64,000 nucleotides of DNA, taken from the NCBI RefSeq assembly GCF_013167455.1, contig NZ_CP038328.1. The stretch is one strand, 5' to 3'. The position numbers were made by a program. Source of the DNA: Escherichia coli O157:H7 (GTDB lineage Bacteria > Pseudomonadota > Gammaproteobacteria > Enterobacterales > Enterobacteriaceae). Positions 48,001-57,000 of the stretch are shown here, one piece after another (the stretch's first letter is position 1; each line of letters begins with the position of its first letter).

Positions 48001-51000
48001 TCTACATCTGTCCTGGCGGTTGCGCTCACGATACCCTTCCCGCTTATGCTATTACGCAGTTCGCCAGTCACGTTTTTTAGCGTTAACAGACCGTCATTGG
48101 CAATATTTCCTCTGCCTAACCCCTGCGTATTATCGAGGCTGACTTCCGCATTTGGGCTAACGCTGGTTAACGCATTGTAGCGTGCATTAAGCCCCTCGAC
48201 AGCCAGCGTTCCCCCTGTAACATTCAGGTTTCCGCCACCTGTCAGTTCACCCTGACTGATCCCACCTTTATTTACCGTCAGCGACCCTTCTTTGAACAAA
48301 ACAGTCGAACCCATCTGCCCGGTGAATGTCTCTACCGTCTGCGTCGATCCATTAAGATCGACGATGGCTGCGTTGCTGATGTTCAGTTCCCGGGTGTTGC
48401 CCAGCGCGCCATCCGCATCGGTACGTAATGTCCCCATCTGAACGTAGGTTGCCCCCTGATAGTCGTTCTGACCGTTGGAAAGCGAAACCTGTCGCACCGT
48501 ATTGATTGCCAGATCCCCTTCACCACCGATTTTTGCCGACATATCGGCCGTTGCGCCATAGGCTCCGCCATGTTCGGCTAACGTCAGCTTTTGCCCTCCA
48601 TGGATGTTCAGCGCTTTCAGCCCATAGTTAACGTACAAACCATCACCTGGTGCGGTCGTGAGGCGGAATCCATAATCACCCTCGGCGACCACCGTTCCGT
48701 TTTGCGCAATGTGTAACGTTTTGTCCGCTTCCACCTCGTCGCCCTGTAAATCACGTAACGTTAATGAGCCACCCGACCCAATAACCGTTTGCGCCTTCAC
48801 CAGTTGAACGCCGACATGGTTATCATCGTGTTCCAGCAAATTGAGCGTCGTCAGAGGGTTATTCGCCATAGGATCATTCCACGGTTTAGGCACGCCGATA
48901 AGCACGTCGCCCGTCCCGTTTACCTGATAGTTACGGCCTTTCCAGGTGTAGTCACTCGCGCCGACAACCAGCGTATCGACGCTGATATATCCCTCTGCAA
49001 GCGTCGCAGCAGGAATATCCGTATCGAAAATGAGCGTACCGCCATTCATGGCCAGTCCACCAATGGATTGCTCTCCCACGTTTACCGATGTGGTATTTTC
49101 AATGTCAGACTGCAACATCGCGTGAGTAAGCGCAGCGGTGTTGTCGCGTTCCAGAGTGAAGGTACTGTCTTTCAGTTGGGCAACACCGGCGAATTCAGTC
49201 CCTGTTGCATGTGTAAAGCCAAACATCTTGTCGGAGGATGACAGCTGAACTCGCATCAAGCCATCGCCTTTGAGCGCATTGGTCAGCGTGTAATCTCCTG
49301 CACTGTTCGTTGATGCGAGAATGTCGAGCGTACCGGGGCTTGCAATGGTTACTTCACTCGATCCCATGCCCGTTACCCCATCTGCCGTATGAGACGCAAT
49401 GGTCAGGAGGCCGTCATTGACCAGCGTTTTACCGCTATAAGTATTCCCTGCATTGAACACCGTATGGCCTGCATCATGGATCACTTTTCCGTCTTTATCG
49501 TCACCTGTAATCAGCATATCGACCTGGTAGCCGGCATCACTGTTATTAGTATGATTAAAGACAAAAACACCTTCGCCAGAGCCAAACTCTACTTTCGTCG
49601 CGTTGGTGATAAATCCGGCATCTGCCGCCGCCTCACCGTGAGCTGCACCAATGTTTAGCGTTCCTACAGCAGGTTCAAAAACACCTAAGTAAACTTCTCC
49701 ACCTTCGACATTCAGCGTGCCGCTATTCGTCAGGGTTAACGTACCCGTACCAGATGTCCCTACGTGGGGTCGTTTGCGGGAGGGGGCGGAATCCTACGCT
49801 AAGGCTTTGGCCAGCGATATTCTCCGGTGAGATTGATGTGTTCCCATCCGAGCGGCGAAACATGGGCCAAGAGATCGGGCGATAGCAGCTTTCCATCGCG
49901 TTTCTGGTTTGCAACGACCTCGCCGAGCTTCATGGTGTTCCAGAAGATGATGATGGCGGCGAGCAGATTCATGCCGGCGATGCGGTAATGCTGGCCTTCG
50001 GCGGAACGGTCGCGGATTTCACCGCGGCGGTGGAAGCTGATTGCCCGCTTCAGCGCATGATGAGCTTCGCCTTTGTTGAGCCCGATCTGGGCACGCCGTT
50101 GGAGTTCGGCATCCAGAATCCAGTCGATCATGAACAGGGTGCGCTCGACGCGACCGACTTCCCGCAGGGCTGTCGCGAGCTCGTTCTGCCGCGGATAGGA
50201 GGCGAGTTTCCGCAGAATCTGGCTTGGCGCGACGGTCCCGGCAGCAATGGTGGCGGCGATGCGCAGGATGTCGGGCCAATTGCGCTCGATCATGGCTTGG
50301 TTGACCTTTCCGCCGATCAACGCTCGCAGGTGCGCCGGGGCGGCCGACGGATTGAACGCGTAGAGCCGTTTGGATGGCAGGTCGCGGATGCGCGGAGCGA
50401 ACCGGTAGCCGAGAATGGCACATGCGGCAAAGACGTGATCGGTGAAGCCGCCCGTGTCGGTGAACTGCTCGCGGATATGGCGTCCAGCATCGTTCATCAG
50501 CAGGCCATCGAGGATGTAAGGCGCTTCGCTTGCCGTTGCAGGAATCACCTGGGTTGCGAACGGCGCATATTGGTCGGAGACGTGGCTATAGGCTTTCAGG
50601 CCCGGGGTATTGCCATATTTCGCGTTGACCAGGTTCATGGCCTCACCTTGCTCTGTAGCGACGAAGAACTGTCCGTCGCTCGAAGCCGACGTGCCCATGC
50701 CCCAGAACCGGGCCATGGGTAACGCTGCCTGTGCCTCGACCACCATGGCCAGCGCCCGGTCATAGGCTTCGCCCTCGACATGCCACCGTCCAATGCGGAT
50801 CAATTCCCAGAAGGTGTGGGTGTTTGTCGCATCCGCCATTTTGCGCAAGCCGAGGTTGATCCCTTCCGCCAAGATAACGTTCATTAGCCCGATCCGGTCA
50901 GCGCAGGGTGCTCCTGTGCGCAGATGGGTGAACGCTTCGGTGAAGCCGGTCGCCGCATCCACCTCCAGCAGGAGATCGGTGATGCGCGTGGGCGGGATCT

Positions 51001-54000: not shown

Positions 54001-57000
54001 AGAATAACATTACAGTTGTTCGAACGCGTAAATTCAAACGGACAACGGATAGTCATCATACCTTCAACATTGCACCGAACCTATTAAAACAAGACTTTAG
54101 CGCAAGCGCACCCAACCAGAAATGGGCAGGCGATATCACTTATGTTTGGACCAGAGAAGGATGGGTCTATCTTGCTGTTATCCTTGACCTGTATTCCCGT
54201 CGCGTGATTGGCTGGGCAACAGGTGATCGATTAAAGCAGGATCTTGCATTAAGGGCACTGAATATGGCGTTGGCTTTACGCAAACCACCACCGGGTTGTA
54301 TTCAACACACAGACCGTGGGAGCCAATATTGCGCTCATGAATATCAAAAGCTACTGCTCAAACATCAATTGCTGCCGTCCATGAGCGGGAAAGGCAATTG
54401 TTTTGATAACTCCGCAGTAGAAAGCTTCTTTAAATCATTAAAGGCTGAGTTGATTTGGCGCAGACACTGGCAAACAAGGCGAGATATTGAGATTGCAATC
54501 TTCGAATATATAAATGGCTTTTATAATCCACGCCGAAGACATTCAACACTCGGCTGGAAATCGCCGGTGGCATTTGAGAAAAAAGCCGCTTAAAATGAGA
54601 GATAGACCGGAACACAACCGGTGCAAGACCATGGAAAGCATGTTCTCGGACTTACGTAGCAACTCGTTTCTTTTCGCAGGTTGAGCCACCTCCGCGCTTC
54701 ATCAGAAAACTGAAGGAACCTCCATTGAATCGAACTAATATTTTTTTTGGTGAATCGCATTCTGACTGGTTGCCTGTCAGAGGCGGAGAATCTGGTGATT
54801 TTGTTTTTCGACGTGGTGACGGGCATGCCTTCGCGAAAATCGCACCTGCTTCCCGCCGCGGTGAGCTCGCTGGAGAGCGTGACCGCCTCATTTGGCTCAA
54901 AGGTCGAGGTGTGGCTTGCCCCGAGGTGATCAACTGGCAGGAGGAACAGGAGGGTGCATGCTTGGTGATAACGGCAATTCCGGGAGTACCGGCGGCTGAT
55001 CTGTCTGGAGCGGATTTGCTCAAAGCGTGGCCGTCAATGGGGCAGCAACTTGGCGCTGTTCACAGCCTATCGGTTGATCAATGTCCGTTTGAGCGCAGGC
55101 TGTCGCGAATGTTCGGACGCGCCGTTGATGTGGTGTCCCGCAATGCCGTCAATCCCGACTTCTTACCGGACGAGGACAAGAGTACGCCGCAGCTCGATCT
55201 TTTGGCTCGTGTCGAACGAGAGCTACCGGTGCGGCTCGACCAAGAGCGCACCGATATGGTTGTTTGCCATGGTGATCCCTGCATGCCGAACTTCATGGTG
55301 GACCCTAAAACTCTTCAATGCACGGGTCTGATCGACCTTGGGCGGCTCGGAACAGCAGATCGCTATGCCGATTTGGCACTCATGATTGCTAACGCCGAAG
55401 AGAACTGGGCAGCGCCAGATGAAGCAGAGCGCGCCTTCGCTGTCCTATTCAATGTATTGGGGATCGAAGCCCCCGACCGCGAACGCCTTGCCTTCTATCT
55501 GCGATTGGACCCTCTGACTTGGGGTTGATGTTCATGCCGCCTGTTTTTCCTGCTCATTGGCACGTTTCGCAACCTGTTCTCATTGCGGACACCTTTTCCA
55601 GCCTCGTTTGGAAAGTTTCATTGCCAGACGGGACTCCTGCAATCGTCAAGGGATTGAAACCTATAGAAGACATTGCTGATGAACTGCGCGGGGCCGACTA
55701 TCTGGTATGGCGCAATGGGAGGGGAGCAGTCCGGTTGCTCGGTCGTGAGAACAATCTGATGTTGCTCGAATATGCCGGGGAGCGAATGCTCTCTCACATC
55801 GTTGCCGAGCACGGCGACTACCAGGCGACCGAAATTGCAGCGGAACTAATGGCGAAGCTGTATGCCGCATCTGAGGAACCCCTGCCTTCTGCCCTTCTCC
55901 CGATCCGGGATCGCTTTGCAGCTTTGTTTCAGCGGGCGCGCGATGATCAAAACGCAGGTTGTCAAACTGACTACGTCCACGCGGCGATTATAGCCGATCA
56001 AATGATGAGCAATGCCTCGGAACTGCGTGGGCTACATGGCGATCTGCATCATGAAAACATCATGTTCTCCAGTCGCGGCTGGCTGGTGATAGATCCCGTC
56101 GGTCTGGTCGGTGAAGTGGGCTTTGGCGCCGCCAATATGTTCTACGATCCGGCTGACAGAGACGACCTTTGTCTCGATCCTAGACGCATTGCACAGATGG
56201 CGGACGCATTCTCTCGTGCGCTGGACGTCGATCCGCGTCGCCTGCTCGACCAGGCGTACGCTTATGGGTGCCTTTCCGCAGCTTGGAACGCGGATGGAGA
56301 AGAGGAGCAACGCGATCTAGCTATCGCGGCCGCGATCAAGCAGGTGCGACAGACGTCATACTAGATATCAAGCGACTTCTCCTATCCCCTGGGAACACAT
56401 CAATCTTACCGGAGAATATCGTTGGCCAAAGCCTTAGCGTAGGATTTCGCCCTCTCCCGCAAACGACCCCTACGTACATATTGAATGTTTCAAGAAGAGA
56501 GTTCTGCCCATCCACCCTCACGTCGCCCTTACTTTTGTCATTGAGAGCTATCTGTGTATCACGCGCTTTAACTATACCTCCGGTGGTAATATTCAGTTCA
56601 CCCGTGCCTAATACACCGACCTGTAGCAATTGGGCGTTAGTAGAAGACGTCTTTAAATTCCAGAGACTATCCGTTGAAATATTAACTATTCCCTTACCGG
56701 AGGCATTTCCTCCGATAAATCCATAGCCCGTTGAATTAAGGGTGGCACCATTACTGACATTTACGATACCGCTACCAAAATTACCGACATTGATACCCAC
56801 AGTATCGAACGACGATGTCGCATCCATCAGGTTCAGTGTGCCGATACCGCTTGCTTTATCGCCCAAAAAAGTAATATTTTGCGATACGAACTTACCGCCA
56901 TCGCTAATATTGAGGTTTCCGACGCCCGCAACACCAATGGTGGTATAGACATTCTTATTGACCTCCCATATCCCCCCCGTGGTGATGCTAACCTTCCCGA

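Follow-up and report, generated by a model that had tools for sequence, protein, structure and literature searches.

Structure of the element

The 64-kb window analysed here (64,000 nucleotides of contig NZ_CP038328.1 from Escherichia coli O157:H7) is identical over its whole length to the chromosome of strain FRIK1989 (NZ_CP111101.1, positions 1144305-1208304, reverse strand; 0 mismatches, 100% identity). FRIK1989, isolated from the faeces of dairy cattle, is an O157:H7 strain that belongs to LSPA-6 lineage I/II and has stx1a, stx2a, and stx2c (bioRxiv 10.1101/2022.09.30.510420). At positions 49766-56470 of the window lies a block of 6,705 bp, which is an intact copy of the transposon Tn5393 with the insertion sequence (IS) IS1133 in the 3' end of its resolvase gene tnpR, i.e. 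the enteric form of the R64/pYR1 type. This block interrupts an autotransporter gene and contains, between its two terminal inverted repeats, the transposase gene tnpA, tnpR, IS1133, and the streptomycin-resistance genes strA and strB.

The block stands out by its G+C content (56.9%, versus 47.2% and 48.6% in the two flanks) and is bordered by a perfect direct repeat TACGT (49761-49765 on the left, 56471-56475 on the right), as the initial annotation had stated. It opens with GGGGTCGTTTGCGGGAG, adjoining TACGT, and closes with the reverse complement of GGGGTCGTTTGCGGGAG. These are the tips of long terminal inverted repeats, which have the 81-bp length on record for Tn5393 (PMC6052338): the left repeat, at the tnpA end (49766-49846, plus strand), starts with GGGG and shows ACGCTAAG at its positions 31-38, and the right repeat lies at the strB end (56390-56470, minus strand). 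The two repeats match at 77 of 81 positions, rather than at 80 as first proposed (36/38 and 84/94 over other lengths), and their similarity fades past about 81 bp.

Protein families were called with NCBIfam models at their curated cut-offs and with Pfam on the identical tnpA and tnpR gene copies of locus L009. The tnpA gene (49799-52684, minus strand) encodes an intact Tn3-family DDE transposase of 961 amino acids (WP_001138082.1), close to the 960 or so residues expected for such a protein; it matches NF033527 with 1022 bits (cut-off 500) over positions 2-954 of the 954 in the model, and the identical gene carries the Pfam domains DUF4158 and DDE_Tnp_Tn3. Divergent from tnpA, tnpR (52810-53433, plus strand) encodes a serine resolvase of 207 amino acids (WP_000904897.1), recognized by annotation and profile match, with the Pfam Resolvase domain on the identical gene. 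The 125 bp between the two genes (52685-52809) include a short direct repeat, TTGAGATACAT/TTGTGATACAT, and are presumed, from their position and the usual Tn3-family layout, to hold the res site and divergent promoters.

IS1133 (53400-54631, plus strand; 1,232 bp) is a typical IS3-family element of about 1.2 kb, with 28-bp terminal repeats (53400-53427 and 54604-54631), TG...CA ends, and a 3-bp target duplication TGG (53397-53399 and 54632-54634). Its OrfAB transposase (53464-54593, plus strand; RefSeq annotation, NF033516 with 337 bits for a cut-off of 160) is encoded by two open reading frames (ORFs) joined by a programmed -1 frameshift; the slippery motif A AAA AAG lies at 53700-53706 and a stem-loop comes after it, at 53718-53741. 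The last 34 nucleotides of tnpR are located inside IS1133, which changes the C-terminus of the resolvase: the seven final residues KHVLGLT of the usual 204-residue TnpR are replaced by ten IS-encoded residues, GLASVSFRSF.

Beside the right end lies the usual Tn5393 cargo, namely strA (aph(3'')-Ib; 54725-55528, plus strand; 267 amino acids, WP_001082319.1) and strB (aph(6)-Id; 55528-56364, plus strand; 278 amino acids, WP_000480968.1). Both exceed allele- or family-level NCBIfam cut-offs (NF032895, 637.7 bits for a cut-off of 600, and NF012171, 385.9 bits for a cut-off of 325, respectively). As the StrA and StrB accessions are the same as in other annotated Tn5393 copies, these two aminoglycoside phosphotransferases are expected to confer resistance to streptomycin. 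Upstream of strA, a scan returned one promoter-like match, a sigma-70-like candidate facing outward from the right end of IS1133 (54567-54596, plus strand; 9/12 consensus match); shuffled sequence gave more matches than this region did. The candidate, weak on its own, agrees with a passage of a 2023 review in which an IS placed upstream of strA is reported to increase resistance (PMC10333595, citing Sundin & Bender 1995), and strA-strB are probably transcribed from the IS1133 end. Profile matches and annotation thus agree with the gene content first described for the block (a Tn3-family transposase, a resolvase, a nested IS3-family element, and strA-strB).

A simple insertion at a known empty site

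When the block and one TACGT copy are deleted in silico, the healed sequence is identical to that of the O157:H7 strain ECP19-598 at 12,999 of 13,000 bases. ECP19-598 has a single TACGT at the site, and the autotransporter frame reads through the healed junction (...ETFNMYV|GTSGTGTLTLTNSG...), as predicted. Because the healed sequence matches an empty-site O157:H7 genome so closely, the block is a simple Tn3-type insertion. A 5-bp match at one fixed pair of positions has a chance of 1/1,024, but the empty-site comparison makes this consideration irrelevant. Intact ends, an intact tnpA, and the single TACGT of the empty site all agree with Tn3-family transposition producing a 5-bp duplication, and the near-perfect healed match supports the initial view of a clean transposition into the chromosome; the insertion is probably recent, as also first proposed.

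The empty site is widespread. Among the 5,426 complete E. coli genomes that form our survey set, 3,954 contain the 1-kb empty-site sequence, which is 100% identical in three O157:H7 strains. Together with the identity of the whole window to FRIK1989, this corrects the K-12-like backbone that had been proposed: the host is O157:H7. The occupied site, by contrast, is very rare, as a 600-bp probe spanning the left junction matches FRIK1989 only (1/5,426).

The insertion can also be followed through a chimeric ORF. The truncated autotransporter gene still has its start codon and ESPR signal peptide, and the resulting ORF (56336-58291, minus strand), which gene callers predict, reads 44 codons into the right repeat of the transposon to give a product of 651 amino acids. 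We found this chimeric ORF encoded on eight contigs in independent assemblies of public sequencing runs. Among these, a contig of 71.8 kb assembled from run SRR21714164 is identical to window positions 48336-64000 and includes the whole element with both junctions.

Two other origins for the observed configuration must be considered. Firstly, the insertion could have been made in another strain and then brought to FRIK1989 by homologous recombination, following transduction or conjugation, instead of arising by transposition within the lineage. A single complete genome carries the insertion, and the eight chimeric-ORF contigs may come from FRIK1989 itself or from relatives, which leaves room for such a scenario. 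However, the 13 kb surrounding the site differ from the other O157:H7 strain by one base and include an 8-bp frameshift of O157 type (see below), so that any donor would also have been O157:H7, and the junction occurs in no other complete genome of the survey set. We thus consider transfer by recombination improbable. Secondly, and with a likelihood lower still, a plasmid-borne Tn5393 could have been misjoined into the chromosome during assembly: the support comes from assemblies and both Tn5393 and IS1133 are repeated in many genomes, but a misjoin would yield neither a perfect 5-bp target duplication nor a healed match of 12,999/13,000 to a sister strain, the FRIK1989 assembly has one copy of the element and hence no repeat to mislead the assembler, and the identity of the SRR21714164 contig through both junctions argues strongly against misassembly.

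The target is an autotransporter pseudogene

The transposon is inserted between codons 606 and 607 of an autotransporter gene on the minus strand. The 5' part of this gene (56471-58291) encodes residues 1-607, with the ESPR signal peptide, and is 97% identical to residues 1-607 of the protein of E. coli SE11; the 3' part (46153-49765) covers model positions 607-1331 and 1341-1806, including the beta-barrel. Instead of one ORF matching all 1,806 positions of NF011422 (ECSE_1600-family autotransporter), we therefore find three ORF pieces matching positions 1-607, 607-1331, and 1341-1806, as the gene has been broken twice, by Tn5393 and by an 8-bp duplication. The family is one of AIDA-type autotransporters with type Va secretion. 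EhaC was also considered as the target and rejected, since EhaC/YfaL forms an NCBIfam family separate from the ECSE_1600 family to which the target belongs.

Even after healing, the autotransporter ORF ends at residue 1343, owing to a separate and older frameshift. This frameshift corresponds to a tandem 8-bp duplication, AATCGGCG AATCGGCG, near codon 1335 (47583-47598, minus strand), which is found both in FRIK1989 and in the empty-site strain ECP19-598, whereas the intact SE11 gene has one copy of the 8-bp sequence. Moreover, the RefSeq annotation of the empty-site O157:H7 strain records a frameshift in the autotransporter gene. As the duplication is common to the strain lacking the transposon, and as the gene is called frameshifted there, the gene was already dead when the transposon inserted. 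The target thus is, by its reading frames, a pseudogene of the ECSE_1600 family, a predicted non-functional member broken in O157:H7 before Tn5393 arrived. The initial annotation placed the insertion in an autotransporter adhesin gene: gene family and frame are confirmed, but the gene already carried a lineage-wide frameshift and was not a working adhesin. The single base by which the healed window differs from ECP19-598 over the 13 kb (position 46293) also lies in this pseudogene, in its beta-barrel-coding part.

The insertion has probably cost the cell little or nothing, and the prior death of the target weakens any claim of altered adhesion. That the insertion matters chiefly by knocking out a working adhesin, with effects on adherence or biofilm behaviour, can be practically discarded: an AIDA-type autotransporter is indeed split at codon 606/607, and FRIK1989 does have a distinctive adherence phenotype (bioRxiv 10.1101/2022.09.30.510420), but O157:H7 strains without the transposon carry the frameshift upstream of the beta-barrel domain, which made a full-length secreted protein impossible before the insertion, and FRIK1989 adheres more strongly, not less (bioRxiv 10.1101/2022.09.30.510420).

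The insertion is surrounded by genes of the ordinary E. coli core (fdn, ddp, dos, gadBC, ydeO/P, the ydeQRS fimbrial genes, and lsr). Directly downstream of the autotransporter gene (44973-46152), hipA has lost its 5' end and hipB is absent, while SE11 has an intact hipBA at this place; as the hipA truncation is also found in the empty-site O157:H7 strain, it is a feature of the lineage unlinked to the transposon. Further away, at about 14149-16538, dosP (oxygen-sensing cyclic di-GMP phosphodiesterase) is annotated as frameshifted in FRIK1989 and is intact in SE11, and this frameshift could be relevant to the reported biofilm behaviour of FRIK1989.

Two forms of Tn5393 with IS1133

Comparison with plasmids identifies the precise form of the element. 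Plasmid matches show either 100% or about 99.2% identity (BLAST figures), and the position of IS1133 accounts for almost the whole difference between these two groups. The arrangement of the window is found in 33 plasmids, all from Enterobacterales, among which R64 and Yersinia ruckeri pYR1. The more common arrangement is found in 174 plasmids, with hosts including Pseudomonas syringae, Sphingomonas, and Corynebacterium. Copies identical to the window element over all 6,705 bp are carried by Salmonella Enteritidis IncN plasmids and by E. coli and Enterobacter plasmids. The BLASTN comparison suggested in the initial annotation therefore gives a clear answer: 100% identity over 6,705 bp to plasmid copies, with one uninterrupted match among E. 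coli chromosomes, that of FRIK1989.

The usual form, as in Leclercia pYUSHP29-1, has the same 6,705 bp, the same order (tnpA, res, tnpR, IS1133, strA, strB), and the same 81-bp ends, and once the IS and its 3-bp duplication are removed, the backbones of this form and of the window copy agree at 5,470/5,470 positions. The difference lies in IS1133, which in the usual form follows the tnpR stop codon, is flanked by TAG, and leaves a TnpR of 204 residues. In the window form, the IS is inserted 25 bp further upstream, inside tnpR, is flanked by TGG, and gives a TnpR of 207 residues. The IS copies of the two forms differ at nucleotides 4, 426, and 1229. The fourth position from each IS end has changed in a complementary way, with TGGT...ACCA in the window (53400-53403 and 54628-54631) and TGGA...TCCA in the common variant, so that both terminal repeats changed together. 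The three differences suggest that the two forms arose through two separate IS1133 insertions. A local hop of IS1133 from the TAG to the TGG site was rejected as the simplest reading, since three positions, both termini among them, distinguish the IS copies.

Named elements close to the window copy include Tn5393l of R64 and Tn5393i of pYR1 (names from PMC10333595), which have IS1133 at the same site in tnpR and encode the same 207-residue TnpR (WP_000904897.1); the position of IS1133 "in tnpR" is noted for Tn5393i in a passage of the same review (citing Cain & Hall 2011). R64 and pYR1 differ from the window in carrying Tn10 (IS10/ISVsa5 with tet(B)) downstream of the IS1133 transposase gene, to which pYR1 adds IS903B, while neither Tn10 nor a Tn10 footprint is present in the window copy. 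Others are Tn5393a and Tn5393c (P. syringae pPSR1 and Aeromonas salmonicida pRAS2), which, as described in PMC10333595, share the transposition module, strA-strB, and ends but have no internal IS, so that the window element corresponds to such a backbone plus IS1133. The element of Erwinia amylovora pEa34 (M96392/M95402) is listed as the original Tn5393 carrying IS1133 (PMC10333595). The window thus carries a known enteric variant in a form devoid of Tn10, and not an import from plant pathogens.

Chromosomal Tn5393 in E. coli and O157

The initial annotation regarded a chromosomal copy in E. coli as noteworthy in itself. This view does not withstand the survey, as Tn5393 sequence is found at 828 chromosomal places, and 79 genomes have 80% or more of the element at a single place. 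Among E. coli chromosomes, that of FRIK1989 (NZ_CP111101.1) alone matches the element as a single uninterrupted piece at 100% identity. The tnpR-IS1133 junction of the window occurs in 57 genomes, at 60 places, of which 51 are chromosomal and nine plasmidic. The common junction is found in 96 genomes, at 24 chromosomal and 72 plasmid places.

In O157:H7 too, chromosomal Tn5393 is on record. A passage of PMC13182975 (citing Ziebell 2011) describes a chromosomal streptomycin-sulfonamide-tetracycline island with Tn5393, named AMR-SSuT, in which, as in the window, chromosomal streptomycin resistance of Shiga-toxin-producing E. coli O157 derives from the strA-strB of Tn5393. As described there, this island is larger and comprises sul2 and a Tn5393.2 disrupted by Tn10, whereas the window copy is a solitary intact Tn5393 at another site, with its own target duplication. 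Membership of a larger AMR-SSuT-like island was considered for the window element and rejected, as autotransporter sequence resumes directly at both ends. Only the insertion site is particular to FRIK1989. As a further occurrence in O157, the 240-kb plasmid of strain 180-PT54 (NZ_CP015833.1) carries Tn5393 in the common IS1133 arrangement, which indicates that O157 gained Tn5393 more than once, in both forms.

The chromosomal share of the window form (51/60 places) contrasts with that of the usual form (24/96). One explanation would be that IS1133 in tnpR favours chromosomal settling, through an altered resolvase tail affecting tnpA/tnpR regulation or cointegrate resolution; we give it little credence. 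More likely, the excess results from non-independence, the form having probably spread clonally or as one island, since one rearranged arrangement with aph(3')-Ia recurs in many of the chromosomal copies, and the copy examined, in strain TUM9803, has apparent Tn10 footprints.

In the TUM9803 chromosome (NZ_CP135671.1, positions 3958-11850 of the locus), the same Tn5393 variant is circularly permuted, in the order strA-strB, right end, about 1.05 kb with aph(3')-Ia, left end, tnpA, tnpR, and IS1133. The whole unit is located inside papA, with the break 77 bp away from the right end of IS1133. Both borders of the unit are 50-bp IS10-end palindromes (CTGATGAATCCCCTAATGATTTTGGTAAAAATCATTAGGGGATTCATCAG), accompanied by pairs of 9-bp repeats, CACTCGGCT from IS1133 and GCTTGACC- from papA. 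These borders look like remnants of Tn10 excision. Two-piece matches akin to that of TUM9803 are found in about 25 other E. coli chromosomes, and the permuted aph(3')-Ia arrangement is the probable reason for the predominance of chromosomal copies of the variant in E. coli.

Route of insertion and significance

Taken together, these observations leave us highly confident that a known form of Tn5393 moved cleanly, by Tn3-type transposition, into the chromosome of an O157:H7 lineage I/II strain (FRIK1989 or a recent ancestor), where it landed in a dead autotransporter gene. The donor would most likely have been an enteric plasmid, one that would be absent from the assembled genome. TnpA would have acted on the 81-bp ends and cut the target at TACGT with a stagger of 5 bp. 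A cointegrate between donor and chromosome would then have resulted from replicative transposition, and resolution of this cointegrate at res, by TnpR or by host recombination, would have left one copy flanked by TACGT.

Several points weigh against this scenario or parts of it. The evidence for the insertion comes from assemblies, and the eight contigs with the chimeric ORF may all stem from one strain sequenced repeatedly. The altered C-terminus of TnpR, a predicted resolvase, implies that resolution may have used host recombination rather than the enzyme of the element. As for resistance, promoter support for strA-strB amounts to a single weak consensus match, and neither streptomycin resistance nor Tn5393 is mentioned in the strain paper (bioRxiv 10.1101/2022.09.30.510420), the sole substantive one that we found on FRIK1989.

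Both the element and its variant are already documented, as are the mechanism and the presence of Tn5393 on chromosomes of E. coli and of O157, and the sequence is part of an annotated public genome. The value of the present case is therefore one of surveillance, and it brings no new insight into transposition, resistance, or autotransporters. Its most useful outcome lies in the points put right: the host belongs to O157:H7, the transposon entered a gene that was already dead, and its type is the enteric one of R64. In addition, the 651-residue chimeric ORF provides a handy exact-match marker to screen assemblies for the insertion. For the organism, the finding means that a streptomycin-resistance transposon, probably still mobile, is fixed in the chromosome of a bovine O157:H7 strain that produces Shiga toxin, and, given this chromosomal location, the resistance would not vanish with the loss of a plasmid.

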